Below the pieces are notes generated by a model, which saw nothing but the letters and a program-made list of their open reading frames with translations, made no database searches and was not told the DNA's origin. The translations under genes were made by a program, and so were the position numbers. 64,000 bases of DNA from Candidatus Omnitrophota bacterium (GTDB lineage: Bacteria > Omnitrophota > Gorgyraeia > Tantalellales > Tantalellaceae), in contig JAQUQS010000006.1 of assembly GCA_028715965.1 (NCBI GenBank), forward strand, positions 50,163 through 114,162. Reading direction: 5' to 3'. Below, one piece after another: positions 1,573 through 34,869 of this stretch (positions are counted from its first letter, which is position 1; every line of letters begins with the position of its first letter).

Positions 1573-2040
1573 ATGGCCGCCAGTTTGAACAAGGTATTTC
1601 TTATGGGGAACCTTACCAGGGACCCCGAGATAAGGTATATACCGAGCGGTACGGCTGTAGCGAATTTCACCGTAGCGGTGAACCGTCCATACAAGGACAC
1701 GACCGGGGAGAAGAAGGACGAAGTATCCTTCATAAGGGTCGTGGTGTGGGGGAAAATGGCGGAGATATGCGGGGAATACCTGACGAAAGGTAGGCCGGTC
1801 CTGGTAGAGGGCCGGTTGAAGTCCCGGACATGGGAAGCCCAGGACGGGCAAAAAAGGAGTTCCATGGACGTTGTGGCCACGAGTGTACAGTTCCTGGGAG
1901 GCAAGGGAGACAGGACGCCTTCTGCCGGGGGGAAGAAAGATGTTGGGGCAGGGGCTTCTCGGGACGACGACCAGGGTTACGGAGAAGTGGAATCTATCGA
2001 TGTTGATCAAGGCGCGATGGATAATGAAGTGCCGTTTTAA
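1573..2040 (+). CDS. ssb: single-stranded DNA-binding protein
   Basis: OB-fold SSB motifs (NKVFLMGNLTRDPEIRY..G..VANFTVAVNR) are followed by a Gly/Asp-rich linker and an acidic C-terminal tail ending DNEVPF. Confidence 0.92.
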   Translation: MAASLNKVFLMGNLTRDPEIRYIPSGTAVANFTVAVNRPYKDTTGEKKDEVSFIRVVVWGKMAEICGEYLTKGRPVLVEGRLKSRTWEAQDGQKRSSMDVVATSVQFLGGKGDRTPSAGGKKDVGAGASRDDDQGYGEVESIDVDQGAMDNEVPF

Positions 2041-4208: not shown

Positions 4209-6529
4209 TGAAAAAGATGTTCGCAGCAATACTTGTGGTCTTGTCATTCCTTGTTGCCTTTTGTCTGCCATCCGCGGAACTCGCGCAAGCCCAGACCGGG
4301 AGCGCTAAAAAGATCTCGGATATCAAGATCAAAGGGAATAAAGCGGTAAGCACCGCGACCATAATGAACAAGTTGAAGATAAAACCAGGTGATGCTTTCG
4401 AAGAGCTGGCGCTTAACAACGAAATAAAAAGGTTGTACGCCACTGGATTCTTCAGCGATGTTTTCGTTGAAACGGATGACAGGGAAGAAGGCGTGCTCGT
4501 GATCTTCACCGTGATGGAAAAACCGACCATAAGCGGGATAAAGTTCAGCGGCAACGGGCGTATAGCCGCCGCGAAACTCATGAAAAAGATACAGGTAAAA
4601 GAAGGCGACCTTCTTGACTTCAATATGCTGGGCCAGGACGTCATCAACATCAGGACGAACTATACCGAGCAGGGGTATAGCAACGCGCAGGTAGATTACA
4701 GGATAGAGACGGATCCCGATACGGGCGCGGCCGTAGTGGTATTTGTCATAGATGAAGGTATGCCGTTCAAGATAAGGAAGATCGGTTTCGAAGGCAACAA
4801 AAGTGTTAAAACAAGCGAACTATTGAGTTACATGTCCACTAAAACGGCATGGTGGTTCATACGTAAGGGGGCGTTCGACGAGGACGTGTTCAAGGAAGAC
4901 CAGGAGAGGATACAGTCGGTATACCGCAGCAAGGGTTTTCTCGATGCCAAGGTGACAAGCCGGGTGGAATACTCGGAAGACGGGAAGAGCATATACCTGA
5001 CCGTTATCGTGGATGAGGGCAAACAGTATTATGTAGGCGACCTGAAGCTGGTGGGTACGCTCGCTTTTCCGGAAGAAGATGTAATGGCGACATTGAAGAT
5101 GAAGCCGGGAGACGCGTTCGATTATAAGCTCATAAAAGAGGATATGGATAACATAAGGGCCTTCTATTTCGACAGGGGATACATGAACGCGGAAGTGGAC
5201 CTGCAGAACAAGTATAATCCCGTTACCGACAAGATGGACCTTATCTACAAGATAACGGCGCACGAAGAGGTGTATGTCGGAAAGGTCAACGTATTGGGCA
5301 ATACGAAGACAAGGGATAAGGTCATACGCAGGGAGCTCAGGGTATATCCAGGAGAAATGTACAATGGTGAAAGACTAAAGACAAGTAAGGAGAGGATATA
5401 TAACCTGGGATTTTTCGAGGATGTTTACCTGGAGACCGTGCCTACGGACAAAAGTAACGTTAAGGACCTGGATATTACGGTGAAGGAGACCAAGACCGGC
5501 GAGCTTTCTTTCGGTGGCGGATTCAGCTCGGTCGACGCCTTCATTGGCTTTGCGCAGATACGGCAGAGGAATTTCGATATACTTAACTTCCCGAGCTTTA
5601 CCGGTGGTGGACAGGACCTTACCATAAGGGGGGAGATAGGCAGCACCAGGACCAATTATCTCCTTAGCTGGACGGACCCGTGGATATTCGATCTTCCTTA
5701 TCTTTTCGGGTTCGATCTCTACCGTACCGAATACGACAAATCAGGTCTTTCCGGGTATGACTATTACGAGAGGCGTACGGGGGGGTCTTTAAGGCTGGGG
5801 AAGGACATAACGGATAACCTGGCTACGGGACTCGTATATAACCTGGAAGAGGTCAAATTGACGGATATACCGGATGACGCCTCAGCGGATCTCCAGGCAG
5901 AAGCCGGGACCAACACCCTGAGCCGCGTTACCTGGAATCTTACTTATGATACCCGTGACAATAAATTCTCTCCGACAAAAGGTATCGTTACGGGTATGTC
6001 GCTCGAGAATGTCGGGGGTTTTATAGGCGGGGACAAGGATTTCGTCAAAGGAACGGTCTTCCTGACATATTATCGCACTATAATCGAAGAGGTGGTCCTC
6101 GAACTTAAGGGTCGCGGTGGTATGGCTGAGCCTTATGACGATACGGACAAGATACCGATATATGAAAGGTTCTTCGCGGGTGGCGCCACTACCATAAGAG
6201 GTTATAAACAAAGATCTGTTGGACCGCGGGACTCCAGGGACGGGGCTATCGCTATAGGAGGCGATTCTATGGTTATCGGTAACGCTGAACTCGCGTTCCC
6301 GCTGTATAAACAGCTTTTAAGGGGAGCTGTTTTCTATGATGTGGGCGCGGTACACACGAAAGCGGAAGATATCTTTGAAACATCGGGATATGTGATGGGC
6401 GCGGGCGTAGGAGTAAGGGTAAAAACGCCGATAGGTCCGGTAAAACTGGATTATGGTTATCCCTTAAGCGATAACCATGATGATAAGAAGGAAGGACAGT
6501 TCTATTTTAGTGTAAGCCATGGGTTCTGA
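4208..6529 (+). CDS. bamA: outer membrane protein assembly factor BamA
   Basis: A signal peptide is followed by five POTRA-like repeats and a C-terminal Omp85 beta-barrel that ends in an aromatic residue (..SHGF). Confidence 0.9.
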   Translation: MKKMFAAILVVLSFLVAFCLPSAELAQAQTGSAKKISDIKIKGNKAVSTATIMNKLKIKPGDAFEELALNNEIKRLYATGFFSDVFVETDDREEGVLVIFTVMEKPTISGIKFSGNGRIAAAKLMKKIQVKEGDLLDFNMLGQDVINIRTNYTEQGYSNAQVDYRIETDPDTGAAVVVFVIDEGMPFKIRKIGFEGNKSVKTSELLSYMSTKTAWWFIRKGAFDEDVFKEDQERIQSVYRSKGFLDAKVTSRVEYSEDGKSIYLTVIVDEGKQYYVGDLKLVGTLAFPEEDVMATLKMKPGDAFDYKLIKEDMDNIRAFYFDRGYMNAEVDLQNKYNPVTDKMDLIYKITAHEEVYVGKVNVLGNTKTRDKVIRRELRVYPGEMYNGERLKTSKERIYNLGFFEDVYLETVPTDKSNVKDLDITVKETKTGELSFGGGFSSVDAFIGFAQIRQRNFDILNFPSFTGGGQDLTIRGEIGSTRTNYLLSWTDPWIFDLPYLFGFDLYRTEYDKSGLSGYDYYERRTGGSLRLGKDITDNLATGLVYNLEEVKLTDIPDDASADLQAEAGTNTLSRVTWNLTYDTRDNKFSPTKGIVTGMSLENVGGFIGGDKDFVKGTVFLTYYRTIIEEVVLELKGRGGMAEPYDDTDKIPIYERFFAGGATTIRGYKQRSVGPRDSRDGAIAIGGDSMVIGNAELAFPLYKQLLRGAVFYDVGAVHTKAEDIFETSGYVMGAGVGVRVKTPIGPVKLDYGYPLSDNHDDKKEGQFYFSVSHGF

Positions 6530-6568
6530 TCCGAACGGAAGTGTTCTTAACAACGGAAGGAGAGAGAT

Positions 6569-7081
6569 ATGACGGGGCAGATGATAAAATATTGTGTGAA
6601 AGTAGTAACAGTAGTTACAGTTTTGGCTGTTTGCGCGGGGCCGTTAGCTTTCGCGGAAGGGAAAATAGGTTATGTCGATCTTAGAAAGGCTTTTTATGAA
6701 TATGAGAAAGCCAACTCACTTGACAAGCAGCTCACAGACCTTACGGAAAAACGCCAGAACGAGAGAAAGACCAAGATAGACGCGATCACCAAGCTGAGGG
6801 AAGAGGCCGAACTCCTGAGCCCGGAAGCAAAAAGCAAGAAACAGACCGAGATCGATCTCAAGTTGGTACAGCTTCAGGAATTTGATAGAGAGGCCAGGCA
6901 GGAACTTCTCACGAAAAAGAACGATATGTTCAAAGAGGTAATAACCGACATACAGAACGTAGTGGATGATTTCGGTAAAAAAGGCGACTATGATTATATC
7001 CTTGATTCAAGGAATATCATGTTCTCAAAGCCCGAATTCGATATGACGGACCAGGTCATAAAACAGCTTAACAAAAAGTGA
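6569..7081 (+). CDS. skp: periplasmic chaperone Skp (OmpH family)
   Basis: The product is about 170 aa with a signal peptide and a Lys/Glu-rich coiled-coil body. It sits immediately downstream of bamA, as in the conserved bamA-skp-lpx cluster. Confidence 0.8.
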   Translation: MTGQMIKYCVKVVTVVTVLAVCAGPLAFAEGKIGYVDLRKAFYEYEKANSLDKQLTDLTEKRQNERKTKIDAITKLREEAELLSPEAKSKKQTEIDLKLVQLQEFDREARQELLTKKNDMFKEVITDIQNVVDDFGKKGDYDYILDSRNIMFSKPEFDMTDQVIKQLNKK

Positions 7082-7172
7082 TCCATCTGAGTATATTCCC
7101 GGGGGCGGGTATCGACACCTTGCAGAAAGAAGGACGATACTGCCCCCGGACCGTTTAGGGGAGATATGTGAA

Positions 7173-8012
7173 ATGTCGAGACAGGCGACCATAGAAAGGG
7201 ATGTCAGTTTTTCCGGGATCTCCCTGCAGGAAGGGAAAAAGGTCGAGATCATCTGCAGGCCAGCCCCGGCCGGGACGGGTATAGTCTTTATCCGGACCGA
7301 CATAGGCCCTGATGCCCGGATCCCCCTGAACGAGAAGACGATATCCACCGGACCCGACAGGAGGACCACGCTAAGTGTTCCCGGCGCGGAAGTTCAGACC
7401 ATCGAACATTTCATGTCAGTATTATGGTGCCTTTCCATCGATAATATATATGTAGAGCTTAACGCGGAGGAGATGCCGGCCATGGATGGCAGCGCCGGCG
7501 GGTTTCTTGAGGTGCTGAGACCGGCTGGTAGGAAAGAACAGGACCGGCCACGACGGATCATCGAGATAAACAAGGAATTCCGGGTCGAAAAGAACGGGGC
7601 TTATGTGGCGGTGTATCCGGCGGAAGGGTTCGTAGTCTCATATTCCATAGACTATGGAATACCCTCTATCCCTTCCGAAAAGATGGAAGTCGAACTTTCT
7701 CCGTCCGTGTTCGAGAAAGAAATACTGCCGGCCAGGACCTTTTGTCTCAAGGAAGAGGCGGAAATGCTCCTCAAGGCGGGACTCGGCAAAGGGGCGACGT
7801 TCGAGAATACACTTGTAATGGCCGCGGACGGGCCTGTTGATACAAAGCTAAGGTTCAGCAATGAGCCTTTAAGGCATAAGATGCTTGATCTTGTCGGGGA
7901 CCTGTACCTTACAGGACGTCCGCTAAAGGGCAGGATCGAAGCCGTAAGGTCGGGACACAGGCTTAACGCTGAAATGGTCCGATATCTGTACCGGGAATAT
8001 AACGCGCAATGA
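7173..8012 (+). CDS. lpxC: UDP-3-O-acyl-N-acetylglucosamine deacetylase
   Basis: The N-terminus (RQATIERDVSFSGISLQEGKKV..PAPAGTGIVF.RTD) and a length of 279 aa are typical of LpxC, and the HKMLDLVGDL zinc-site region is present. Confidence 0.92.
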   Translation: MSRQATIERDVSFSGISLQEGKKVEIICRPAPAGTGIVFIRTDIGPDARIPLNEKTISTGPDRRTTLSVPGAEVQTIEHFMSVLWCLSIDNIYVELNAEEMPAMDGSAGGFLEVLRPAGRKEQDRPRRIIEINKEFRVEKNGAYVAVYPAEGFVVSYSIDYGIPSIPSEKMEVELSPSVFEKEILPARTFCLKEEAEMLLKAGLGKGATFENTLVMAADGPVDTKLRFSNEPLRHKMLDLVGDLYLTGRPLKGRIEAVRSGHRLNAEMVRYLYREYNAQ

Positions 8013-8036
8013 ACCATATTGAATAGGAGAGGGATA

Positions 8037-8492
8037 ATGGAAAAAAAGGTATTGGATGTAAAGAAGATCATGTCATTTATACCGCACAGATACCCGTTCC
8101 TTCTGGTCGACCGGGTCATCGATTACGAAAAGGACAAGTGGATCACGGCTATAAAGAACGTGACCATCAACGAGTCTTTTTTTCAGGGACATTTCCCGGG
8201 CGAGCCGATAATGCCGGGTGTGTTGCAGATCGAAGCTTTGGCACAGGTTGGCGGCATACTGGCGTTGATGTCCGACGATGAAAGTGATACTTCCGAAAAA
8301 CTGGCCTTTTTCATGACGATCAATAACGCTAAGTTCAGAAAACCTGTGGTGCCCGGAGACCAGCTCACCATGAAGGTGGAGATAGTCAAAAGGGTGAGAA
8401 AGAACATAGTGCAGACCCACGGTAAGGTGCTGGTGGATGACACGGTAACATGTGAAGCCGACCTTATGTTCAGCATTTTCGACAAAAAATAA
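8037..8492 (+). CDS. fabZ: 3-hydroxyacyl-[acyl-carrier-protein] dehydratase FabZ
   Basis: The hot-dog fold motifs HFPGEPIMPGVLQIEALAQ are present. The ATG at 8037 is preceded by AGGAGAGGG, and the ORF-track start at 8019 is a TTG extension. Confidence 0.9.
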   Translation: MEKKVLDVKKIMSFIPHRYPFLLVDRVIDYEKDKWITAIKNVTINESFFQGHFPGEPIMPGVLQIEALAQVGGILALMSDDESDTSEKLAFFMTINNAKFRKPVVPGDQLTMKVEIVKRVRKNIVQTHGKVLVDDTVTCEADLMFSIFDKK

Positions 8493-8504
8493 AGGACAGC
8501 TGGA

Positions 8505-9305
8505 ATGGATAAGATCGGTATAATAGCCGGTAAAGGCGCTCTCCCCATGGAATTCCTGGATGAAGCGCGGCAGGATGGCCGGAAAATAACGGTCTTTGCA
8601 CTGCAAGGCATCACGGATAAGACGATCACGGAGCATGCTGAAAAAGTGTATTGGCTAAAAGTGGGTGAATTCAAGAAATTCGCGTTCCTTTTGATACGGG
8701 ACAGGATCAAACAGCTTGCTCTTCTTGGTAAGGTGGATAAGTCCATACTTTACCGCGAGCACGGACAGGATGACGAATACAGGAAAAGCTATGCCCGTAT
8801 AGGGGACACCAAGGATTACTCCATACTGCAGGAGGTCACGCGAAGACTGGGCTTTATCGGGGTAAGCGTGATGGATAGCACGGTATATCTTAAACATTTG
8901 CTGCCCGAAAAAGGGTTTCTTGGAAGTGTAAGGCCTGATGATACCACGGAAAAAGATATCAGCTTTGGATACGATATCGCGAAAAAGATATCAGGTATGG
9001 ATATCGGCCAAACGGTCGTAGTGAAGGGCGGGACCATCGTAGCTGTCGAAGCCATAGAGGGGACTGACGAAACGATAAAGCGCGCAGGGGCCCTTGCCGG
9101 TTCCGGGTGTGTCATGGTAAAGGTAAGTCGTCCCCATCAGGATATGAGGTGGGATGTGCCCACGATAGGGGCCGATACGATAAGAACGCTTGTTGAGAAC
9201 AAGTTCAAGGCCCTCGCGATAGAAAGCGGCCGAATGTTCGTGATGGACAGGCAACAAGTGGCGGACATGTCGGGACAGGCGGATATTACGATCAAGGTTA
9301 TTTGA
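8505..9305 (+). CDS. lpxI: UDP-2,3-diacylglucosamine pyrophosphatase LpxI (DUF1009 family)
   Basis: The N-terminal IGIIAGKGALP motif and overall LpxI_N/LpxI_C architecture (about 266 aa, GADTIRT motif) match LpxI. The gene lies in the lpx cluster in the position LpxH would otherwise occupy. Confidence 0.75.
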   Translation: MDKIGIIAGKGALPMEFLDEARQDGRKITVFALQGITDKTITEHAEKVYWLKVGEFKKFAFLLIRDRIKQLALLGKVDKSILYREHGQDDEYRKSYARIGDTKDYSILQEVTRRLGFIGVSVMDSTVYLKHLLPEKGFLGSVRPDDTTEKDISFGYDIAKKISGMDIGQTVVVKGGTIVAVEAIEGTDETIKRAGALAGSGCVMVKVSRPHQDMRWDVPTIGADTIRTLVENKFKALAIESGRMFVMDRQQVADMSGQADITIKVI

Positions 9306-10439
9306 TCAGATACGATCCTTGCCCGCAAAACGGGCTATAGCTTTTGCGGCTCTTCCTGCCGCACCCTTTTCTCCCAGGGAACGTTTTACTTCCCTAATAG
9401 CGGCCAACATAGCCTCCCTTTTACCTCGATCGTTAATGATATCAAGTAAATGGCGCGACAGTTTTTCAGGCGTGAAGTCGTTCTGGAGGAGTTCCGGTAC
9501 CACTGTTCTGCCGGCGACCACATTGACAAGGCCTATGTCGCGGACCTTAGCGAACAGTTTGAAAAGGGCATATGTAAGGAACCCGCTCTTGTATACTATT
9601 ACCATTGGTCTTTCCATCATGGCTGTCTCGAGCGTAGCTGTGCCGGAAGCCACTACGGCTATATCACAATCCGACAGGCAGGAGAACGCGTCGTCGGTGT
9701 ATTCCTTTATCCGCAGTTCTGTGCCATACGTGGAAACGATATTATTATATAGCTCCGCATTAACATTGGAACTTTTCGCCAGCAGGATATGGGGAACATC
9801 CTTATTCCCGCGTATTTTACGGCAAGCCGCGAGCATTGTGGGCAACAGATTCTCTACTTCACGCGTTCTTGAGCCAGGGAGAAGCCCGATCGTCCTGGGG
9901 GGTGTAGCCGGATCTCTGGTCAATGTCCCGTCCGGGACCATGTCTACGAGAGGATGCCCCGCATATTCGGCGAAAATGCCGTGTTTCGCCAGAAGGTCTT
10001 TTTCGAAGCGGAAGAGGGTTATCGGAAGCGACACATGATTTTTTATATATCGTACACGGTCTTCTCCCCAGGCCCAGATCTGCGGTACCACATAATATAC
10101 CACCGGTATCCCGTTCTTTTTCAGGAACCTGGCCATGCGCAGGTTGAATCCCGGATAATCTATGAGTATGGCCATAGAGGGGCGTCTCTTTATTGCTTCA
10201 GCCTTCAGGGAGGCAAATTGGCGGCGTATCTTGAACAAGCTTGTGAGGAGTTCAGAAATGCCGACAAGCGAGAACGAGCGAATGTGGGTGAATAGTTCCA
10301 TGCCTTGGGATGACAGCATGTCCCCGCCGACCCCCCAGAAAGAAGTGCCTGGAAGAAGGGGGCGGAGTTCCTTGAGAAGTTCGCTTCCGCGCATGTCTCC
10401 GGAAGGTTCTCCCGCTATTATAAGGATATTCTTGCTCAT
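9306..10439 (-). CDS. lpxB: lipid-A-disaccharide synthase
   Basis: The N-terminus (ILIIAGEPSGDMRGSELLKEL) and a GT-B fold match LpxB. The probable ATG is at 10439 (the TTG at 10448 is an extension), and the stop codon abuts the lpxI stop. Confidence 0.9.
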   Translation of the reverse strand: MSKNILIIAGEPSGDMRGSELLKELRPLLPGTSFWGVGGDMLSSQGMELFTHIRSFSLVGISELLTSLFKIRRQFASLKAEAIKRRPSMAILIDYPGFNLRMARFLKKNGIPVVYYVVPQIWAWGEDRVRYIKNHVSLPITLFRFEKDLLAKHGIFAEYAGHPLVDMVPDGTLTRDPATPPRTIGLLPGSRTREVENLLPTMLAACRKIRGNKDVPHILLAKSSNVNAELYNNIVSTYGTELRIKEYTDDAFSCLSDCDIAVVASGTATLETAMMERPMVIVYKSGFLTYALFKLFAKVRDIGLVNVVAGRTVVPELLQNDFTPEKLSRHLLDIINDRGKREAMLAAIREVKRSLGEKGAAGRAAKAIARFAGKDRI

Positions 10440-24394: not shown

Positions 24395-24466
24395 ATAGAA
24401 AAAAGGCTTTAAAAATAAGGGACTTGTAGTATAATAATTTTCCGGAATTCGCACGACAAAAACACC

Positions 24467-24584
24467 GCTGGGATGTAGCCGCATACCAGAGATCCCGCGG
24501 ATCACGGTATACGGCGCGTGTAATTGGTAACAGGACCCCTGTACCGTGATCACGAAGTGATCTCTGGTACAGGGCAGCTGACTC
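24467..24584 (+). pseudogene. degenerate 5' fragment of tRNA-Gln interrupted by two ~40-nt mutually complementary insertions
   Basis: Three segments are identical to the downstream tRNA-Gln: aacaccgctgggatgtag, tgtaattggtaaca and cagctgactc. They are separated by insertions at 24479-24518 and 24533-24574. The first insertion contains accagagatc and gatcacggta, and the second contains their reverse complements taccgtgatc and gatctctggt. There is no anticodon 3' half, T-arm or acceptor 3' strand. Confidence 0.6.
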
Positions 24585-24662
24585 CGTGTATAATAAATGC
24601 ATTTTTTGATAATGTCTCAAGTTGTAAAGCAAAATAAGTAAGTTATACATAAAAAACACCGC

Positions 24663-24737
24663 TGGGATGTAGTGTAATTGGTAACACAGCTGACTCTGGA
24701 TCAGCCGTTCCTGGTTCGAGTCCAGGCATCCCAGCCA
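24663..24737 (+). tRNA. tRNA-Gln (anticodon CTG), CCA encoded
   Basis: Manual fold gives acceptor TGGGATG/CATCCCA (U1:A72), discriminator G73, D-stem GTGT/ACAC, anticodon stem GCTGA/TCAGC with loop CTCTGGA (U33, anticodon CUG, A37), T-arm CCTGG-TTCGAGT-CCAGG and an encoded CCA. Confidence 0.85.
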
Positions 24738-24744
24738 TATATAA

Positions 24745-24770
24745 AAAAACCCTCTTTTGAGGGTTTTTTT
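24745..24770 (+). terminator. rho-independent terminator after tRNA-Gln
   Basis: aaaccctc tttt gagggttt is followed by a T7 run. Confidence 0.7.
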
Positions 24771-25084
24771 ATATGCCCGCGGAAGCGGGGGACGAGGGGT
24801 ATAAGATAAGAAATACCCCGAGTGACTGAGGACGCAATGTCCGAAGAAATGCCGCGAAGTCCCCTGAGCGGCCTGACCAGATAGCTTTTAACCCCTAACT
24901 GTTTACAGAATAAGTAGATGGGAGTACAATAACTGGAGTTGGGATAATAAGAAGTTATGATGTGTTAATGCCGTCCTACAAATGTATTGACAGCTTTACT
25001 GTTATGCTAACAGGAGAATGATATTATAGATTTTTCTGATTGGGGATAAAATGGTTATGAAGAGAAGAATGGTAGGAGGACGAA

Positions 25085-26065
25085 ATGGCTAAGCCTAGGG
25101 TTTTTATAAGTTCAACTTATTATGACATGAGGAATGTTAGGGCGGATTTGGAGAGATTTATTTTAGAACAAGGATATGAGCCCGTTTTGTTCGAGAGAGG
25201 GCATATTGCTTATGGTACGGAAGAGCGGGTGGAAGAAGATTGTTATAGGGAAATTAATACTTGCGACATATTAATAAATATCATTGGTGGTAAAATTGGG
25301 ACGCAGTCAAGAAGCACACAATATTCTATTTCACAAAATGAGCTAAAAGAAGCAATTAAGTTGGGAAAGCAGATATATATATTTGTAGAACGGCCAGTTC
25401 TAGCCGAATATAGTACCTTTATTGCAAATAAGGAAGTAGCGGGTTTCAAGGCAACTGCCGTGAATGATTTAAAGGTATATTCTTTTCTTGAAGAAATATT
25501 CGCACTTTCTGGAAAAAATCCAGTGCAGGGTTTTGAGGTTTCAGAAAACATTACCACTTTTCTCAGGGAACAGTGGGCAGGACTTTTTCAGGTATTACTG
25601 CAGGAACGTGCTAGGCAAAAGGAAGTAAATTTACTAGGCAGAATTGAAACGACTGCAGATACATTAGATAGGTTAGTAAAGTTTTTAACTGAAGAACGAA
25701 GTCAGGGCGACCAGGCCATTAAGGATATTCTTCTAAGCAATCACCCATTGTTCAAGTCTTTAAAGAAGCAACTTAACATTCCATATCGTATCTTTTTTGA
25801 AACACGCGATGAAATGGAAGCTTTGCTTGTAGCCAGAAAAACTAATCTAATTGAAGAGAAAGAGTGGGATGATGCAGAATATATAGAGTATTTGTGTGAA
25901 TGGTGGAAGAATACCACAAAAATTCTAAAGATAAAAGAAGATCTTTTTGACGAAGAAGGAAGGCTAAAAATATTTAAACCAGATGAGTGGGATGAAAGCG
26001 CCGTTATTTTGGAAGAAATAGAAAAAAATAATACTAGTGGAGAAGATTTAGAAGTTCCTTTTTAG
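25085..26065 (+). CDS. hypothetical protein with an N-terminal TIR-like (DUF4062-like) domain, an alpha-helical C-terminal domain, and a C-terminal SSB-tail-like EDLEVPF
   Basis: AGGAGG lies 7 nt upstream of the ATG. The N-terminus RVFISSTYYDMRNVRADLERFI resembles the VFISST..DM..R..L signature of DUF4062/TIR-like domains, and a conserved Glu sits in IYIFVERP. The C-terminal 170 aa are Glu/Lys-rich and helical, and the last residues are EVPF as in the host SSB. Confidence 0.6.
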   Translation: MAKPRVFISSTYYDMRNVRADLERFILEQGYEPVLFERGHIAYGTEERVEEDCYREINTCDILINIIGGKIGTQSRSTQYSISQNELKEAIKLGKQIYIFVERPVLAEYSTFIANKEVAGFKATAVNDLKVYSFLEEIFALSGKNPVQGFEVSENITTFLREQWAGLFQVLLQERARQKEVNLLGRIETTADTLDRLVKFLTEERSQGDQAIKDILLSNHPLFKSLKKQLNIPYRIFFETRDEMEALLVARKTNLIEEKEWDDAEYIEYLCEWWKNTTKILKIKEDLFDEEGRLKIFKPDEWDESAVILEEIEKNNTSGEDLEVPF

Positions 26066-26117
26066 CTATTACTTATGTTTATATGGTGAGCGCTTGGGTA
26101 AATTCCAGTTGGACAAG

Positions 26118-26128
26118 TCCCAGCCATA
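26118..26128 (+). repeat. direct repeat of tRNA-Gln 3' end (att-like right boundary of islet)
   Basis: This is an exact 11-nt match, TCCCAGCCATA, to tRNA-Gln positions 24727-24737. Confidence 0.55.
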
Positions 26129-26132
26129 AAAA

Positions 26133-26158
26133 ATACCCGCCTTTGGCGGGTTTTTTTA
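26133..26158 (+). terminator. rho-independent terminator downstream of islet CDS
   Basis: cccgcc tttg gcggg is followed by a T7 run. Confidence 0.7.
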
Positions 26159-26452
26159 TGGTCAAAGGCCTGTGGCCTTTGTCTGTTCCCGGCTCGGGTT
26201 TCCGGCTGGGAACAAGTTCCCGCCGCTAAACCTCACCGGTTCCAGCTGTGATGCCTGGGATCCTGCGCATCTCGTCAGCTCGGTGCTGGTACGATCAGGG
26301 GACAACTTAAGCTATGGTTGGGGACAGTTTAAGCGGGAGTTTGTACCCGGTACAAGCTTTTGGCGTAGCCAGTACTTATTTACTGAAAAACTCCGCTTCG
26401 TATGATAAAATATCACATCAACAATTGTTATAACAAGTTAGAGGAGAGGGAC

Positions 26453-28373: not shown

Positions 28374-31300
28374 ATGCATATGAAAAGAACATATCCTTTC
28401 TATCTGGTGTTTATCCTTGCGCTACTCTTTACCAGTACCTTTTCGGAAGCCTACACAGAGGCCTACTCAGGACAGGAACTTGGACCTCGTGACGATATTA
28501 TGACAAAAAAACGCGTTAACGTGCTTTTAGAGGAAAGGGAGACCCTTCTCGAGGAACAGAAAGGTCTTTTGGAATACATGGGGATAATGGAAGAAGAGAT
28601 AGCAAGGCTCAAGAAAGAGGTTTCGGAATCCAGGAAGGGTCTTATGTCGGAAGTGGAAAAGACCAAAAAAGAACTTAGGGAACGGCTAGGGCAGCTGGAA
28701 GAAGAGAATGATACACTTAGGCGGCAACGGCAGATACTTGCCCGTAAATTAGTCGACCTTAAGGATGTAACGAAAACCTGGGACGGAGACACTGGTCCTT
28801 CAGGGGTGGATGATGCCGGGCTAAAAGGGCTAAAGAACGAGAACGATGAACTTTTGAAGGAGAATAGTGATCTTCGCGGGCAGATAGAGAAAGAAAGAAA
28901 AAAGAACGACAGGATCGAAGAAGATCTTAAGTCCGAAAAAGAAAAGGTCTCAAGGATCCAGAGATCACTCGAGAACGGGGTTAGCCAGGCTGCCGCGATC
29001 ATTGATGAAAAAGACGCGGAAATAAGGGAGCTTAGGAAAGAAAGCACGATCCTGTCGGTCAGGATAAGGGAAGCGGAGAAAGAGAACCTGGACCTCAGGA
29101 ACTCTTTAGGGGACTCCAAGACGGGGGCCGGTGTGGAAGATACTGGCAGTAGGGAGGATATCGCGCCCGGTCTTGAGGAGAAGATAAAAGAGCTTCAAAC
29201 GGTAATAAAAAGCCTGGAAAGGAAAAACCTTTCTTTACGGGAAGAGAATTCCAGGCTGGGAAAGACAGCTGTAAAGACCGGAACGCCCCAGGGAGGGCAG
29301 GACGAAGGGGTCGAAGGATACGTGTCCGATATAAGGGAAAAGAACGCCATCATATCGGAGTTACGTGGGGAAAAAGAAATGCTGGGAAAAAGGTTATCTA
29401 TCGCGATCAACGCCAAGAAAGCCTTAGAGGAAGAGCTTGCCAAGAGCCGGGTATCGACCGAAGCGGATGTTGACGCGGCGCGTCAGGAGCTCAAGAGCTC
29501 ATATGACGATATGGTTGAGGGGCTTAAGAAAGAGAACAGTGGCCTTCGGTCCGAGTTGTCGTCATCTGCCGGCAGGGAAAAGCGTCTTGTCGATGAGCTG
29601 GAAAAGACAAGGACGGGGATGAAGGAGCTTCTGGCGGACAACCAGAGAAAAGACCTGGCGCTGAAGAAGGTCATGGATCACCGCGAAGACGTCGAGAAAA
29701 AGCACAAGGACCTCGAGCGAAAGAATATCATGCTTGAGACCGAGCTGAAGAACCTCAACGCGCTCCAGGCCACAGAAAAAGAAAAGGCCCGGGAAGAGAT
29801 AAGCGCTGAGTACGAGGGCAGGATCAAAAGCCTGGCGCGAGAAAAGAACAAGCTGATGTCAGGGCTTGCCGAGCTGGAGAAAGAGCTCTTGGACATGAAG
29901 GATCGAGAGAAAGACGTGGAAAATGACAGGGTAAAAGAGCGGGATGAAAGAAAAGAGATGATCCGTGTGTTGACCAAGAAATACGCCAAGCGGGAAAGGG
30001 CTATCCTGGATGAGCGTGACGCCATGAAGGAAAAGATGGATGCCGCGAAGAAAGAGCTTGCCGATATACGGAAAGAAAAAGACGCGATACTGTTAGACAA
30101 AGAAGCGGCTGAAAAGGACAGGCAGGTCGCGGTGGAAGAAGCCCAGCTTATACGCCAGCAGGTTTCCCGGCTAAAGGATGATCTTTTAGAAAAAGAGGAG
30201 ATCGACAAGAAAAAGGCTAATGATTTCTATGTGCGAAAAGCGGCACTTCTTGAGAACGAGAACAAGGTCCTCAGGGATAACGTGAAAGAGATCAAAGAGA
30301 ACATGGCAAAAAAAGATGAAAGGACCAAAGAACTGCTTTCCGGCGCGGATGACATGAAGGCAGAGCTTGAAAAGGTTTCGCGGGAAAAAAGAGCCCTTTT
30401 GGAAGAGATAGATACGCTTAAGGCTTCAATGGAAAAGATAATGTCCGAAAAGGACGGTACCTATGCTACGGTCGAAAGCCTGCAAGGGAAGATACTGGCG
30501 CTTGAAAAAGAGCGTGACGATATGGGGAAAGAACTCGAGGGCTTGAGAGCAAGGAACAGCGTGGATATAGACGCAAAGCTCAGGGAAGCTGAGGGGGTGA
30601 TCTCCGAAAAGCAGGAAAGCATAAATACGCTTCTCGCCGACATCAAAGAGAAACAGGAAGAGGCGGAGAGGCTTTCGGGGGAAAAAGACGCGCTGGTAGA
30701 GAAAATGAAGGAAACATTGAAGGAGAAATACCTGTTGGAGAACAAGGCCAGGGACATCCTGAAGGAAAAATATGTCCTGGAAGAGGAGCTCGCGGCAGTA
30801 AGGGCCGGCGCGGAAAAGACCGCTACGAATGTGGAGGAATTTTCCGAGAAGGCCGGTGAGCTTGGGCAGCAGAACGCCGTTCTATCACGGGAAGTCAGGG
30901 AGCTTGAGGGTAAATTGGACGATATCTCCCGGGAGTTGGAGATGACTGAACAGGAGAACGAGGGGCTCAATGCCGACATTAAGGAATACCAGGCGCAGAT
31001 AAACGGGTTCAGCGCGGAGAGAGAGAGATTGAACGCCCAGATAAGGGCGATCCGGGGGCAAGCGGTCACCCCGGCAGGCGGAGCCAACGAGTTCGAGTCG
31101 TATATGTCTAAAATGGATACGGTCGTAGCGGAACGTGTAGAGGCGGAGAGGAAACTTGCTCAAGAAGCCTTTGATCGTAAGATAGAGGCGTACAAGAAAG
31201 AGGTTGGAGCATTGAGGGCGCAGCTTGACGCCAAAGGAAAAGATAGCGATACACGTGTGGATGTAAAAGGGGATTACGAGAGGCAGATGAAGGAAAAAGA

Positions 31301-31802
31301 CGGCAAGATCAAGGATTACGAAGATGCCTTGAGCAAGGAATTGGCCACCGTACGGGTCCTACAACGCAAGCTGAATGATACCAGGAAAAAACTCGCTGAT
31401 CTCGGATCGTCATTTGAGGCTACGATAACGGATAAGCAGAACATAATAGACAGGACGGGGAAAGACCTTGCCGCCGCGCGCAGCCAGGAAAAGGACATAA
31501 AAGAAAAATACCAGAAGGTCATGAGGGATCTTTCGAGCGCTTTACAGGGTAAGTCCAGTCTGGAGAAAAAACTCAAAGCCTACGGATCGGAAATAGACAG
31601 GATGAAAAAGAAAATAAGATCAAAGGGAACATCGGACAGCCGGGAGCCTTCCGGAAAACTTGAACGTGAAGTGCGGGCGTTGCGGGACGAGAACTCCGAA
31701 CTGAAACAACGGCTTGATATATTGCAGAAAGAGATAGAAGAGCTAAGGATGATGAACGCTAGGTCCCCCGTGCCGGTACATGTGGCCGGTGCCTCGAATT
31801 AA
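28374..31802 (+). CDS. giant secreted coiled-coil protein (1142 aa), function unknown
   Basis: The signal peptide is MKRTYPFYLVFILALLFTSTFSEA. More than 1000 aa follow of heptad-pattern Glu/Lys/Leu-rich sequence with no globular domain, and the C-terminus is Pro/Val-rich. Confidence 0.7.
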   Translation: MHMKRTYPFYLVFILALLFTSTFSEAYTEAYSGQELGPRDDIMTKKRVNVLLEERETLLEEQKGLLEYMGIMEEEIARLKKEVSESRKGLMSEVEKTKKELRERLGQLEEENDTLRRQRQILARKLVDLKDVTKTWDGDTGPSGVDDAGLKGLKNENDELLKENSDLRGQIEKERKKNDRIEEDLKSEKEKVSRIQRSLENGVSQAAAIIDEKDAEIRELRKESTILSVRIREAEKENLDLRNSLGDSKTGAGVEDTGSREDIAPGLEEKIKELQTVIKSLERKNLSLREENSRLGKTAVKTGTPQGGQDEGVEGYVSDIREKNAIISELRGEKEMLGKRLSIAINAKKALEEELAKSRVSTEADVDAARQELKSSYDDMVEGLKKENSGLRSELSSSAGREKRLVDELEKTRTGMKELLADNQRKDLALKKVMDHREDVEKKHKDLERKNIMLETELKNLNALQATEKEKAREEISAEYEGRIKSLAREKNKLMSGLAELEKELLDMKDREKDVENDRVKERDERKEMIRVLTKKYAKRERAILDERDAMKEKMDAAKKELADIRKEKDAILLDKEAAEKDRQVAVEEAQLIRQQVSRLKDDLLEKEEIDKKKANDFYVRKAALLENENKVLRDNVKEIKENMAKKDERTKELLSGADDMKAELEKVSREKRALLEEIDTLKASMEKIMSEKDGTYATVESLQGKILALEKERDDMGKELEGLRARNSVDIDAKLREAEGVISEKQESINTLLADIKEKQEEAERLSGEKDALVEKMKETLKEKYLLENKARDILKEKYVLEEELAAVRAGAEKTATNVEEFSEKAGELGQQNAVLSREVRELEGKLDDISRELEMTEQENEGLNADIKEYQAQINGFSAERERLNAQIRAIRGQAVTPAGGANEFESYMSKMDTVVAERVEAERKLAQEAFDRKIEAYKKEVGALRAQLDAKGKDSDTRVDVKGDYERQMKEKDGKIKDYEDALSKELATVRVLQRKLNDTRKKLADLGSSFEATITDKQNIIDRTGKDLAAARSQEKDIKEKYQKVMRDLSSALQGKSSLEKKLKAYGSEIDRMKKKIRSKGTSDSREPSGKLEREVRALRDENSELKQRLDILQKEIEELRMMNARSPVPVHVAGASN

Positions 31803-31830
31803 TTAGCTAAAAAACAGATGACGGGAAAAT

Positions 31831-34800
31831 ATGATGGTATGTAAGAGAATGGTACGTTCGAGTTTGCCGATCGCTTTCCTTGTGTTATCACAGGCGGTGC
31901 GGCCCATATATGCTGATGGAGAGGCAGCCACGCCTATCACGATCACGGCGAAAAGTAATAACGCCGTGATGTTCGGTAATAGCGGGAGGGATGAAAGCGG
32001 TATCGCCGATGGGCAGACAAGCGCTATCAGGCAGAAAGAGACGGAGATCGAGATATTAAAGGCGCAGCTTGAAGAAGCCAACGAAAGGCTGGCCACGAAA
32101 GAAAGATCTACCGGAGACAGCACGTCCAGATTGCGTAACCTGGTGGCGCGAATAGATGCCCTGGAAAAAGCTTCCAGGGAAAAGATCGCGTCATACGAGA
32201 AAGAGATAGCGGAGCTTAAAGCCGGGTCGGTCGAGAAGAACATATACCAGGGTACGGCCGGGGAGAAGGACCGGATAGAAATAAACAAACTCAAAACGGA
32301 GCTGGCCGGCGCGAAAGACGCTTTATCCCGTAAAATAGAAGAAGTCGCGGCCATGGACCGCGATCTCTCCCGCGTTAAGGAAGAAAAAAATAGCGCGCAA
32401 GCTGAAGCGGCATCTTTCAGGAACGCGCTATCGGAAAAGAGCCGTGAGTTAAGTTCCGTGCTGGAGGCGCATGCATCCCTGAAAAAAGAGCTGGATACCG
32501 CCATGGCGGGGATGAACGGGATCAAGGGGACAGAGGAAGATGGTGTTAAGGACGAAGAGGCTTTGTCCGTGCTGGAAAGCAAGGTACGGGACGGGGAAGA
32601 GACCATATCGTCCTTGAAAGAAGAGATAGTTTCCAGTAATATCAGGGCGGAAAAATATCTCGGGGATATCGAAGCGGCGAAAAAAGAGATAGAACGGTAT
32701 AAGGAGGACATCAGCAGGTTGTTGGCGGAGAACGCAAAATACCAGGAGAGGATAGACGCGTTGGACAAGGAAAGAACGGAAAAAGATATCGCGTCCGATG
32801 AGGCTATCTTGAAGGTCGAAGCGGCGGAACGGGAAGCGTCAGCGTACAAGGAAGATCTGTCCGCGGCCCAGGCGGAGGTGCGGAGCAATAAGGAGAGGAT
32901 AGACGCCCTCAAAAATGAAATAGCGGCCGGCGTGGCGAACATTAAGAAAAAAGAGGATATTATTAATGGGTTGACCGCTGAGATCGATTCCGAAAGAAAA
33001 AAGGCCCTTACTTACGCCGGACAAACGAAGGAGTATGAGGCAAAAATAAAGCGTATGGAGGAAGACCTGGCTCGCATGATCGACGCATCGGGAAAAAAGG
33101 ACGAGGAAATGACGTCACTCAGGGCTGAGATCGATGACTTGAGGAAGATCGAGGAACAAAAAGAGACCACGCGTGATAGTTTGAGCGGCGAGCTGGAGAT
33201 AAAGAAAAAGGAATTAGCTAATTTCGTAGAGGGGTTCGAGGCTTATAAAGAGAAGTATGCCGCGGAGGTCATCGATAGAGAAAAAGAGATAGAAAACCTC
33301 AGGAATGATCTTGCTGCCGGCAAGTCCAAGTTGGAAGACGCGAGGAAGGAGCTTGACAAGGAGAGAGGCGCCCTAAGGAACAAGGACGCGCGCATAAAGG
33401 AATTGGAGGGAAAGTTATCCTCCATGGAAGCCTTGGCCGAGGCAAAGTCCGCGGAAATGGAAAAGGGCCTGTCAGAACACCTGGAGACGATAAAGGTCAG
33501 GAACGAGGAAATAGGTAAGCTTAACGAAAAGATCGGGTCTTTTCAGGAGCAATTCAAGACCTTTTCCGACGCCAAGGATTCTGAAGTGGCTTTAAAAGAC
33601 AGCGAGATAGAGAGGCTAACGTCGGAAGTGAGGGGCCTGAAGGATGTCGCGATATCTAAGGATAAAGAGATCAACGCCCTCAAAAAGAACATGTCCGGGC
33701 TTGAGGGCAGGATAAAAGAAAATTCCATGAATTATGCTAAAGAACTGGACGCTTTAAAGGTGTCGATCGAAACAATAAGCAAAGAGAAAGAGGATATGGC
33801 CGCGGAGCTCAAGTCCAAGGCCGACGAGGTCAAGACTCTCACGGAAAGCCAGGAGGAAATGAACGTTTCTCTCGAGGCATACAAAAAAGACGTGACTTCC
33901 GGGGTGGCGGAAATAAGCGAGCTAAAGGCGCGTTTGGGGCGAACGGATGACGAGATGAAAACGCATCTTGCGGAATATGAGAAAGAGATCGCGGCGCTTG
34001 AGGCAGAGCTTGAGGAAAAGAACGCTAAAATGATCGAACTGGATTCGAGCCTGAGTTCGTATAAAGAGCAGTTCATAAGTTTTTCAGAAGAAAAAGACAA
34101 GGAGATAGCCGCCCAGAAAGACAAGATAACGTCACTTGAGAAGGAGAACGCGGTATTCTCAAAGGAGCGCATGGACCTCAAAGACAAAGAGTCGCGCCAG
34201 GCCGGCAGGATAAATGAGCTCGAGCGGGAAACGGGCCGGATAAAAGATAAGGCCGCGAAAATAATCTCAAAGTATAAGGAGGAAGTAGAAACGCTTGAGG
34301 CCAGATCGTTGTCGGTCCAGTCCCAACTTACGCAGGCACAACAGGAAGCGGAAGCGCTAAGGGATGAAAAGGCGAGAAAAGAACTTGAAAAAGACGAAAG
34401 GACCGCGCAATTCCAGTATATGTCGGCCAGTCTCAAGCGTGCTATGCGCAAGACCATAGACGCGGGTGAAGTGGCAGTTTCGGCCTCGGATAAGGGGGTT
34501 AAAGTATCGGTCCTTAGTGATGTCCTGTTCGGGCCGGGAAGTGCCGATATCAGTTCCGGGGGGAAAAGTGTCTTATCGGATATTGGTAACGCCCTCCAGA
34601 AAAGTATGTCCGGAAATAAGATCGTTATCGAGGGGCATACGGATAACGTGCCTATACGCAGGTCCGGATGGAAGTCGAATTGGGACCTGTCCAGCCAGAG
34701 AGCGATATCCGTATTGCATTATTTTACTGATGACCTTGGTATGACCCCGGATGATATGCGGGTGACCGGATATGGACAATATCGCCCGATAGCGGATAAT

Positions 34801-34869
34801 TCGACCGAGGAAGGGCGCAACCGGAACCGAAGGGTCGAGATACTGGTGCTCCCGGTGGCGGAAAACTAA
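31831..34869 (+). CDS. giant secreted coiled-coil protein (1012 aa) with C-terminal OmpA/MotB-type peptidoglycan-binding domain
   Basis: A signal peptide ending at the IYA-DGE cleavage region is followed by about 850 aa of coiled-coil. The C-terminal domain (VLFGPGSADISSGGKSVLSDIGNAL..IVIEGHTDNVPI..SNWDLSSQRAISVLHYF..TGYGQYRPIADNSTEEGRNRNRRVEILV) matches OmpA_C. Confidence 0.8.
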   Translation: MMVCKRMVRSSLPIAFLVLSQAVRPIYADGEAATPITITAKSNNAVMFGNSGRDESGIADGQTSAIRQKETEIEILKAQLEEANERLATKERSTGDSTSRLRNLVARIDALEKASREKIASYEKEIAELKAGSVEKNIYQGTAGEKDRIEINKLKTELAGAKDALSRKIEEVAAMDRDLSRVKEEKNSAQAEAASFRNALSEKSRELSSVLEAHASLKKELDTAMAGMNGIKGTEEDGVKDEEALSVLESKVRDGEETISSLKEEIVSSNIRAEKYLGDIEAAKKEIERYKEDISRLLAENAKYQERIDALDKERTEKDIASDEAILKVEAAEREASAYKEDLSAAQAEVRSNKERIDALKNEIAAGVANIKKKEDIINGLTAEIDSERKKALTYAGQTKEYEAKIKRMEEDLARMIDASGKKDEEMTSLRAEIDDLRKIEEQKETTRDSLSGELEIKKKELANFVEGFEAYKEKYAAEVIDREKEIENLRNDLAAGKSKLEDARKELDKERGALRNKDARIKELEGKLSSMEALAEAKSAEMEKGLSEHLETIKVRNEEIGKLNEKIGSFQEQFKTFSDAKDSEVALKDSEIERLTSEVRGLKDVAISKDKEINALKKNMSGLEGRIKENSMNYAKELDALKVSIETISKEKEDMAAELKSKADEVKTLTESQEEMNVSLEAYKKDVTSGVAEISELKARLGRTDDEMKTHLAEYEKEIAALEAELEEKNAKMIELDSSLSSYKEQFISFSEEKDKEIAAQKDKITSLEKENAVFSKERMDLKDKESRQAGRINELERETGRIKDKAAKIISKYKEEVETLEARSLSVQSQLTQAQQEAEALRDEKARKELEKDERTAQFQYMSASLKRAMRKTIDAGEVAVSASDKGVKVSVLSDVLFGPGSADISSGGKSVLSDIGNALQKSMSGNKIVIEGHTDNVPIRRSGWKSNWDLSSQRAISVLHYFTDDLGMTPDDMRVTGYGQYRPIADNSTEEGRNRNRRVEILVLPVAEN

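Follow-up and report, generated by a model that had tools for sequence, protein, structure and literature searches.

A 64 kb stretch of the genome of a Candidatus Omnitrophota bacterium (64,000 nucleotides, referred to here as the window) encodes, in a small low-GC islet beside a tRNA-Gln gene, a single protein of 326 residues with a DUF4062 domain. The question raised by this locus is what a solitary gene of this kind does. In the current analysis we consider it rather probable that the gene is a self-contained single-protein anti-phage system of the DUF4062/NIR class acting by abortive infection, with a cue that would be read through the interaction network of SSB, the protein that binds single-stranded DNA, as the C-terminal tail of the protein suggests. 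The product belongs to a distinct full-length family that combines a DUF4062 head, a long helical stalk, a C-terminal domain of its own and an acidic tail resembling that of SSB. The open reading frame (ORF) at 25085-26065 on the + strand has the N-terminus that had been quoted in an earlier reading of the letters of this DNA (the sequence-only reading), and its 326-residue translation is 100% identical to the NCBI entry MDD4957002.1 ('DUF4062 domain-containing protein [Candidatus Omnitrophica bacterium]'). The coding sequence and its parts are as follows.

25085..26065, + strand: coding sequence including the stop codon, DUF4062/NIR protein of 326 residues (ORF list; Pfam DUF4062).
25085..25534, + strand: TIR-like α/β head, residues 1-150 (AlphaFold AF2 model, Foldseek and PDB profile search; the Pfam match is to residues 5-90).
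25340..25342, + strand: codon GAG for Glu86, the predicted catalytic residue, in the motif S81-I-S-Q-N-E86 (conservation and alignment).
25541..25702, + strand: long helix, residues 153-206, predicted stalk, opening with a conserved EQWAGLFQ motif (model).
25712..26020, + strand: C-terminal auxiliary (AUX) domain, residues 210-312, with three helices and a small β-sheet; presumed sensor.
26021..26062, + strand: acidic tail of residues 313-326, disordered, with the end EDLEVPF that mimics the C-terminal tip of SSB (low model confidence; homolog endings).

The N-terminus had been taken in the sequence-only reading for a TIR-like module of the DUF4062 type, and this assignment has held, well beyond what chance would give. 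The Pfam family PF13271 (DUF4062) is matched by residues 5-90 with an E-value of 5.6e-17 and 62.1 bits, above the curated cutoff of 24.7, over positions 1-82 of the 82 in the profile. DUF4062 is the sole domain detected in the Pfam scan of the protein, which gave no match to a TIR family and none to an SSB profile, and an NCBIfam search of the protein gave no usable match. The AF2 model, with a predicted local distance difference test score (pLDDT) of 83.2, comprises four regions, namely the head (1-150), a helix (153-206), an α/β domain (210-312) and a disordered acidic tail. The head is made up of β-α repeats in the model, in the order strand 5-11, helix 16-28, strand 32-35, helix 47-59, strand 62-67, helix 82-92, strand 96-102, helices 103-115 and 130-141 and strand 147-150. 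Foldseek matched the model with a probability of 1.00 to the TIR domains of RPS4, SARM1 and Roq1, to the CMP N-glycosidase BcmB and to 2'-deoxyribosyltransferase, and with 0.98-1.00 to DNPH1, the E-values being only about 1e-3 with the whole protein as query. These TIR and N-glycosidase or nucleoside deoxyribosyltransferase (NDT) matches are the same fold neighbourhood that the literature reports for DUF4062, and not an unrelated fold. On the model, the head is thus predicted to have a TIR/nucleoside-deoxyribosyltransferase-like fold. A profile of 60 homologs searched against the PDB found the TIR/DUF4062 chain of KpSwz (10wc_A, E=3.1e-5), over the head only.

KpSwz, the Swarozyc protein of Klebsiella pneumoniae (Osinski et al. 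2026; PDB 10wc, 11cq, 11cv), has identified DUF4062 as a TIR-like NADase (10.64898/2026.05.01.722283). It is encoded by a single gene, assembles on the phage portal, converts NAD+ into ADP-ribose plus nicotinamide and brings about abortive infection, with a requirement for E97; its helical stalks dimerise below the TIR-like domains, and its auxiliary domain is a portal-binding winged helix-turn-helix (10.64898/2026.05.01.722283). The Evangelion systems Eva01-Eva04 (Ibarra-Chavez et al. 2026) are single-gene DUF4062 proteins with a diversified auxiliary region, among which Eva01 has the catalytic residue E87 and causes loss of NAD+ (10.64898/2026.06.25.731849). Phages escaping Eva01 carry changes that map to RecA/Sak/UvsX-like recombination genes, and substrates with single-stranded DNA (ssDNA) overhangs are bound and preferred (10.64898/2026.06.25.731849). 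Le Mouellic et al. (2026) renamed DUF4062 as NIR and described PsAvs2, Vulcan (NIR with HEAT repeats) and Vesta (a NIR protein with an alkaline phosphatase) (10.64898/2026.09.04.749371). In PsAvs2, Vulcan and Vesta a Glu is required for defence (E98, E103, E108), which acts at the level of the population with growth arrest at high multiplicity of infection (10.64898/2026.09.04.749371).

The conversion of NAD+ into ADP-ribose plus nicotinamide, a Glu-dependent defence and an abortive phenotype are common to KpSwz, PsAvs2, Vulcan and Vesta (10.64898/2026.05.01.722283, 10.64898/2026.09.04.749371), and the auxiliary regions of both KpSwz and Eva01 are required for defence (10.64898/2026.05.01.722283, 10.64898/2026.06.25.731849). 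DUF4062 has been classified as a family of its own, intermediate between the STIR clan and that of the N-ribosyltransferases (10.64898/2026.05.01.722283, 10.64898/2026.09.04.749371). The NADase and abortive-infection reading is now largely established for the DUF4062 domain, and at that level the idea is no longer new. The single-gene abortive-infection NADase proposed from the sequence is supported at the level of the domain, by analogy with these relatives described in 2026.

The catalytic glutamate had been sought in the sequence-only reading at E102, within IYIFVERPV, and this part did not survive the alignments. Position 102, at the end of strand 96-102, is occupied by E or D within the family, by Asp in Evangelion-like proteins and by His in KpSwz. 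The invariant residues among the 60 homologs are S81 and E86, and the motif S-x-[ST]-x-x-E is present in 76 of the 78 genome members. E86 lies in the first turn of helix 82-92, following strand 62-67 in the model. In the alignments its counterpart in a DUF4062 protein from an Enterococcus plasmid is the Glu of the 'E-Y' motif of Evangelion, and it falls within two residues of E97 of KpSwz (mapped to chain position 82, 'SFTEKAF'), at the start of the same helix. E86, and not E102, is therefore predicted to be the equivalent of the catalytic Glu.

From its sequence the window protein is assigned to the DUF4062/NIR class, and it fits the broad design, a single gene with 'DUF4062 core + AUX', that Evangelion and Swarozyc follow. 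It has in common with Swarozyc the single gene, the DUF4062 head, the Glu at the start of helix C, the helical stalk and the presence of a C-terminal auxiliary domain, and its 326 residues equal the length of the solved KpSwz chain. It differs in that the profile alignment covers residues 4-103 only, the similarity ending at about residue 103 with a second stretch that is not significant, and in that it ends in an SSB-tip mimic, a feature that does not occur in the KpSwz text. Likeness to Evangelion extends to the single gene, the DUF4062 core with AUX and the presence of the N-terminal aromatic (F), E and Q/W motifs, and the Evangelion-type Enterococcus plasmid proteins align with residues 3-198 at 27% identity. 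The auxiliary domain of the window family is however different, and the Enterococcus and Acinetobacter-prophage proteins have no SSB-like tail.

Assignment to the Eva01 lineage, Vulcan, Vesta or Avs was considered and set aside. The protein is not of the Eva01 lineage, as the plasmid matches reach only 27-33% identity over the N-terminal part and the family is chromosomal and not plasmid-borne in the loci examined. Vulcan is excluded by the lack of HEAT repeats, the C-terminus having no Pfam match and forming in the model an α/β domain of about 100 residues and not a repeat solenoid. The alkaline phosphatase partner of Vesta is found neither among the 25 commonest neighbour families listed nor in the window, in which the neighbours are tRNA-Gln and glnS. 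An Avs2-NIR or NLR-like architecture is likewise excluded, since the 326 residues contain no STAND NTPase and no TPR or other repeat sensor, only DUF4062 being detected. The canonical TIR NADases (SARM1, plant TIR receptors, ThsB, TIR-APAZ) share the flavodoxin-like fold and the helix C Glu, with activation driven by oligomerisation to be expected, and differ in that the window protein has no sequence-level match to the TIR Pfam families. The protein is also not an SSB (PF00436), with which only the terminal tip is common and of which neither the OB fold nor the profile match is present.

The C-terminus of the family is variable, often rich in proline or acidic residues and of low model confidence, with a nearly invariant P-F end. 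This end is found in 104 of 120 homologs, among which exactly DDDIPF is the commonest ending (35 of 120), and in 70 of the 78 full-length genome members. The family signature at this end, D-D-D-[I/L]-P-F, corresponds in its sequence to the SSB C-terminal tip. DDDIPF is the conserved C-terminal hexapeptide of bacterial SSB and recruits many partner proteins (PMC5872125, PMC10018359, PMC5531588). A disordered segment whose very C-terminus is an acidic run and then [I/L/V]-P-F is common to the tail of the family, to SSB itself (...DFDDDIPF) and to Bas52_0087, an SSB-like protein of a phage that carries FDDDIPF and is the trigger of DRT10. The difference is that here the tail is carried by a predicted NADase and not by a ssDNA-binding protein.

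In the window the ending can be compared with that of the resident SSB.

1573..2040, + strand: resident SSB gene, 155 residues, ending ...AMDNEVPF (Pfam SSB PF00436, E=4e-40); it is located outside the islet and is the model for the tail.

Endings of this kind are uncommon; among the window ORFs of at least 60 residues only two end in VPF, the resident SSB (NEVPF) and the DUF4062 protein, which ends ...GEDLEVPF (LEVPF). The EVPF ending is found in only 4 of the 120 homologs, and the nearest relatives of the window protein end in DDDLPF or DDDIPF. Gammaproteobacterial members end mostly in [F/Y]DDDIPF, with the F at position -7 present, and MDFDDDIPF is the SSB tip of E. coli, Klebsiella, Salmonella and Pseudomonas, DISDDDLPF being that of Gram-positive bacteria (PMC5531588). 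The members from Pseudomonas sp. JM0905a (WP_190832739.1) and Yersinia alsatica have the ending [D/P]FDDDIPF, which resembles the E. coli tip. Two Paenibacillus members end in ISDDDLPF and ISEDDLPF, matching the Gram-positive tip, and one of them (L073) has a core closest to the IPF-type members despite its LPF tail. By group, 25 of 26 proteobacterial tails are of the IPF type, and 16 of 18 Bacteroidota tails and all three of Acinetobacter are of the LPF type; the comparison with host tips covered the SSBs of the window, the gammaproteobacteria and Paenibacillus. These endings suggest that the tail of the family follows the SSB tip of its own host. An SSB or an acidic tail is not mentioned in the main text of the Swarozyc report or in the text of the Evangelion report, and the words 'SSB', 'acidic' and 'tail' do not occur in the text of the NIR report. 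A host-matched SSB tail on a protein of NADase type is a new and unexpected observation, which the sequence-only reading did not contain.

A tail of this kind could be explained in another way, as a degron, in which the [I/L/V]PF tip keeps a toxic NADase scarce and allows it to accumulate when infection perturbs ClpXP. The precedent is the LPF tip of SsbA in Streptococcus mutans UA159, which suffices for ClpXP-dependent degradation of GFP (PMC5143411). Several S. mutans strains, other streptococci and E. coli do not however recognise the same tag, and neither does purified ClpXP (PMC5143411); for a degron the upstream acidic residues and the host-specific F or S at position -7, as in the resident SSBs, would be needless. 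We consider this explanation very improbable.

The C-terminal half had been described from the sequence as a single helical domain, a description that the model replaces by a helix of 54 residues, a compact α/β domain and the disordered acidic tail. The stalk opens with EQW at residues 162-164, a Q/W motif common to the Acinetobacter prophage and Enterococcus plasmid DUF4062 proteins and corresponding to the Evangelion Q/W/E motif at the junction of core and AUX. The plasmid and phage DUF4062 proteins share the stalk start 'QW..LFQ.LL', and their C-terminal regions differ. The C-terminal 176 residues of the window protein have no Pfam match. A profile of the C-terminal domain searched against 1.84 billion representative proteins found only the family of the window protein or its fragments, and no structural relative was detected in fold libraries that end in April 2026, before the KpSwz entries. 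The domain is a lineage-specific module and presumably the sensor, as the auxiliary regions that KpSwz and Eva01 need for defence suggest by analogy. The sole match to the C-terminal profile with a different N-terminus is a metagenomic protein of 494 residues (P0387), in which about 270 unrelated residues are joined to a copy of the family. It looks like a frameshifted or chimeric gene call and not a new architecture, since the family part starts in mid-domain at 'KQVYIFIEK'.

A word-indexed search found 910 homologs, most of them of about 320 residues and full length with 50-70% identity, and among them none of housekeeping function. Relatives occur in 452 of 185,579 species genomes, scanned as one genome per species, and are scattered across phyla at 40-60% identity. 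The 80 loci that were retained are from Pseudomonadota, Bacteroidota, Planctomycetota, Acidobacteriota, Chloroflexota, Bacillota, Nitrospirota and others, and the gene is chromosomal in the loci examined. In 78 of the 80 loci the GC content of the gene is lower than that of its flanks, by 12 points in the mean, which fits a horizontally circulating accessory gene. Plasmid and phage collections contain no close members, only distant DUF4062 proteins with 24-33% identity over the N-terminal half, and no member was found in E. coli by blastn.

A conserved partner gene was sought by clustering the ORFs within 7 kb at 83 loci, and none was found; the largest cluster comprises four loci and reflects Acinetobacter synteny (aconitase). 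The lack of a partner points to a protein that acts alone, and the stand-alone character of the gene, proposed from the window, is now borne out across these 83 loci. Some neighbours are defence genes, including ThsB, the CBASS 4TM effector, dGTPase, mad3, mad8 and a type I restriction-modification specificity subunit.

In Flavobacterium sp. PS2 (L066) the family gene heads a cluster of TIR-like defence genes. At 8052-10280 of this locus it is followed in order by ThsB (PADLOC E=9e-71), an ORF of 280 residues and a TIR/nucleoside-deoxyribosyltransferase-like protein of 259 residues. The latter is matched by the PADLOC 'TIR effector' (7e-6) and by Pfam Nuc_deoxyrib_tr (0.002), and it also has an SSB-like tip, ...EVSEVDDLPF. 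As it is a second protein with the same kind of tail, SSB-tip tails may recur on other TIR-like defence proteins.

In four independent loci of 85 the gene is located directly 3' of ribonucleotide reductase (RNR) genes and on the same strand (L002 3403-7891, L004 4234-7907, L012 3149-7571, L021 2612-6945). Those in Pseudomonas, Halopseudomonas and an uncultured bacterium carry class I nrdAB; the one in a metagenome has a class II-like RNR with a TSCPD protein. A general linkage to RNR, striking in the first five contexts, was rejected at about 4 of 85 loci overall; the adjacency is a minor enrichment, above the chance expectation and too rare for a rule.

These same-strand RNR loci bear on a role in DNA metabolism, in which the protein is an N-glycosidase or NAD-consuming enzyme recruited by its tail to SSB partners at sites of replication or repair, perhaps tied to nucleotide supply. 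The fold is common to nucleoside 2-deoxyribosyltransferases, DNPH1 and the CMP N-glycosidase, the tail copies a motif of the replication hub, and the neighbours comprise many housekeeping genes, those for thymidylate synthase and cytidylate kinase among them. Such a role is nevertheless judged improbable. RNR adjacency is confined to those few loci, only 452 of 185,579 species genomes have the gene, in scattered phyla and with 40-60% identity, and it is AT-rich against almost every host, absent from close relatives of the window genome and without a conserved operon partner. Moreover, all bacterial DUF4062 proteins assayed so far are defence NADases (10.64898/2026.05.01.722283, 10.64898/2026.06.25.731849, 10.64898/2026.09.04.749371).

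Several copies depart from the full-length form. Truncated copies were identified in Dechloromonas (L039 7001-7732, 247 residues), Acinetobacter (L054 7562-7972, a fragment of 136 residues) and Entotheonella (L082 7190-7963, 257 residues), and a Clostridium copy (L050) has no tail and ends in ...GDTLIK. They are probably decaying copies or assembly problems. A contig of 2.7 kb from a metagenome-assembled genome of a Nitrososphaeraceae archaeon (L037 556-1497) encodes a member that is 71-78% identical to Bacteroidota members and ends in DDGLPF, to be explained either by binning contamination or by cross-domain transfer.

The claim that the gene is the lone cargo of a tRNA islet has been borne out by the organisation of the locus, of which the features outside the coding sequence are given below.

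24663..24737, + strand: tRNA-Gln(CTG), insertion target (ARAGORN; Rfam tRNA, 66.3 bits).
24729..24772, + strand: proximal repeat, the tRNA 3' end (TCCCAGCCATA) with a terminator-like hairpin (direct repeats D2 and D7; inverted repeat I3).
24902..24930, + strand: promoter-like, sigma-70-like site TTTACA-17-TACAAT (consensus scan, 10/12 matches; a pattern match only).
25074-25079, + strand: AGGAGG Shine-Dalgarno sequence, 5 nt 5' of the ATG (by eye from the sequence).
26118..26159, + strand: distal repeat at the far end of the islet, a tRNA 3'-end remnant with a bidirectional terminator of stem CCCGCC (D2 and D7; terminator scan).
26135-26151, both strands: hairpin of the bidirectional terminator (terminator scan).

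The last 11 nt of tRNA-Gln and the terminator hairpin recur at 26118-26159, and the islet between the repeats is about 1.39 kb long with the DUF4062 gene as its single ORF. An ORF search of this 1.39 kb gave no further ORF of at least 50 residues, no integrase and no other mobilisation gene, and an Rfam scan of the islet gave nothing above threshold except the tRNA. The GC content is 0.36-0.39 over 25000-26250 against about 0.50 on both flanks. Three related Omnitrophota contigs (L094, L095, L096), with a glutamyl-tRNA synthetase 71-73% identical to the copy of the window, share with it the gene order xseA-xseB-dxs-ferredoxin-oxidoreductase-gltX-glnS, and the DUF4062 gene is absent from the syntenic site in all three. 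In these relatives (around 6284-8093) gltX and glnS abut, with an overlap or a gap of 1 nt, and glnS is followed at a distance of 30-47 nt by tRNA-Gln(CTG). In the window gltX and glnS are set apart (24395-26401) by about 2 kb that comprise the tRNA, the islet and the repeats. The locus is a tRNA-targeted islet, with insertion at a tRNA 3' end, a direct repeat, absence in relatives and atypical composition. As the tRNA-Gln of the window lies between gltX and glnS and that of the relatives after glnS, it has changed sides relative to glnS, and the locus has been rearranged besides the insertion. The distal repeat is probably the original tRNA end, since its terminator stem resembles the native terminator that follows tRNA-Gln in L094.

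Two further readings bear on this arrangement. In the first, the gene would be selfish, acting as a toxin or as an addiction module, or would be a weapon with which mobile elements compete, directed for example against incoming SSB-coated conjugative ssDNA. This reading could draw on the cassette, solitary and mobile, that has a promoter-like site and a terminator of its own, on the integrases or transposases near some loci, and on the combination of a predicted NAD-depleting effector with a link to ssDNA and SSB. It is an unlikely explanation, as there is no antitoxin-like partner, neither a small ORF in the islet nor a conserved neighbour, and close members are absent from plasmid and phage collections, where only distant DUF4062 proteins with 24-33% identity occur. 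In the second, the gene no longer has a function in this genome and is carried as an inactive passenger, left over from an old integration and decaying. The islet is indeed without an integrase, and the region is scrambled, with a partial tRNA copy and a tRNA displaced in comparison with the related genomes. Against decay, the frame is intact and of full length, all the family-invariant residues including E86 are present, there are a strong Shine-Dalgarno sequence and a terminator, and the truncated copies described above (L039, L054, L082) look different. That the tail matches the resident SSB at its tip speaks for selection in this lineage, and the passenger reading is regarded as scarcely probable. 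Both readings are possible but less supported than that of a defence gene, in the one case by the lack of an antitoxin candidate and in the other by an intact gene with a tail matched to the resident SSB.

The partial tRNA copy is located at 24452-24600 and derives from the 5' half of tRNA-Gln, with blocks of 21, 15 and 10 nt identical to 24652-24696. It is split by two segments of about 40 nt that are inverted repeats of each other, and the region as a whole forms a long hairpin (-58 kcal/mol, z=-4.1), at the tip of which lies a segment of the tRNA D-arm. The copy is not called as a tRNA by ARAGORN or by Rfam, and may represent either a scar of recombination or a palindromic element that entered a tRNA fragment. 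Downstream of glnS, two very large Glu/Lys-rich coiled-coil proteins are encoded on the + strand at 28374-31802 (1142 residues) and 31831-34869 (1012 residues), the second with an apparent OmpA-like peptidoglycan-binding segment at its end, as judged from its sequence. Opposite to them, at 31803-32942, runs a long Ser-rich ORF that seems to be an artefact, mirroring the sequence that codes for the coiled coils.

Some observations weigh against the interpretation of the gene as an abortive-infection system that reads its cue through SSB. The evidence for NADase activity and defence comes from relatives outside this family and is carried over by analogy. The human proteins NWD1, NWD2 and NPHP3 carry DUF4062 and have no NADase activity in vitro (10.64898/2026.05.01.722283), so the domain alone is no guarantee of activity. 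PADLOC, a defence-system tool of the kind proposed in the sequence-only reading, gave no hit to the protein with models that date from 2023 and predate the DUF4062 systems. The immediate neighbours of the family are mostly housekeeping genes, with defence genes in the minority. The tail is of low confidence and is not docked in the models, and common descent within the family could account in part for the way I and L tails are divided among the taxa.

For the abortive-infection protein a mechanism can be proposed from KpSwz, Eva01, Vulcan, VstA and PsAvs2. The protein would be held inactive as a stalk-mediated dimer or oligomer, and an infection cue caught by the C-terminal module would bring the heads together and rearrange them. 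The tail suggests that the cue would be read via the SSB interaction network. A replication-centred cue is plausible given the escape from Eva01 in phage recombinases and the preference for ssDNA overhangs, with which it fits, and given the triggering of DRT10 by a phage protein with FDDDIPF. The tail may act as a bait or anchor, its mimic tip being bound by proteins that dock on host SSB tails. Candidates for these are the single-strand annealing proteins and recombinases of phages and the host SSB partners at replication intermediates. Multimeric binders, such as rings or filaments of phage annealing proteins, would cluster the enzyme as the portal ring clusters KpSwz. Alternatively the tail may act as a plug that sits in a site on its own C-terminal domain and is autoinhibitory, to be displaced when the SSB-tip-binding capacity or the SSB-coated ssDNA surges during phage replication.

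It is tentatively suggested, as a possibility that we hold with more doubt than confidence, that the tip is a host-matched decoy of the SSB tail, which would make the NADase a guard of the SSB interaction hub. The capture of several tails at once would then cluster the heads and deplete NAD+. The tails could be captured by phage proteins that grab the SSB tail (annealing proteins, recombinases, replication hijackers) or by arrays of SSB-tip-binding sites on replication intermediates. The second tailed TIR/NDT-like protein of the Flavobacterium locus hints that an SSB-tail bait is a reusable sensing module. If the decoy proposal is true, the protein would be a bacterial immune sensor based on molecular mimicry: it would imitate a conserved host peptide and, through coevolution, be adjusted to the SSB of each host.

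Only in 2026 were NADases of the DUF4062/NIR type recognised as effectors of immunity; the triggers known so far comprise the portal, the terminase, a small protein of lambda and loci associated with recombination. To these NADases the family described here adds a widespread single-gene lineage, present in 452 species genomes of many phyla, with a copy of the SSB tip at its presumed sensor end. A non-SSB protein ending in D-D-D-[I/L]-P-F provides a search signature for similar systems. If the tail is functional, the sensing principle would be surveillance of the SSB interactome by a decoy peptide, and immunity by NAD+ depletion would be linked to the replication and recombination of phages, a direction in which Evangelion and DRT10 point already.

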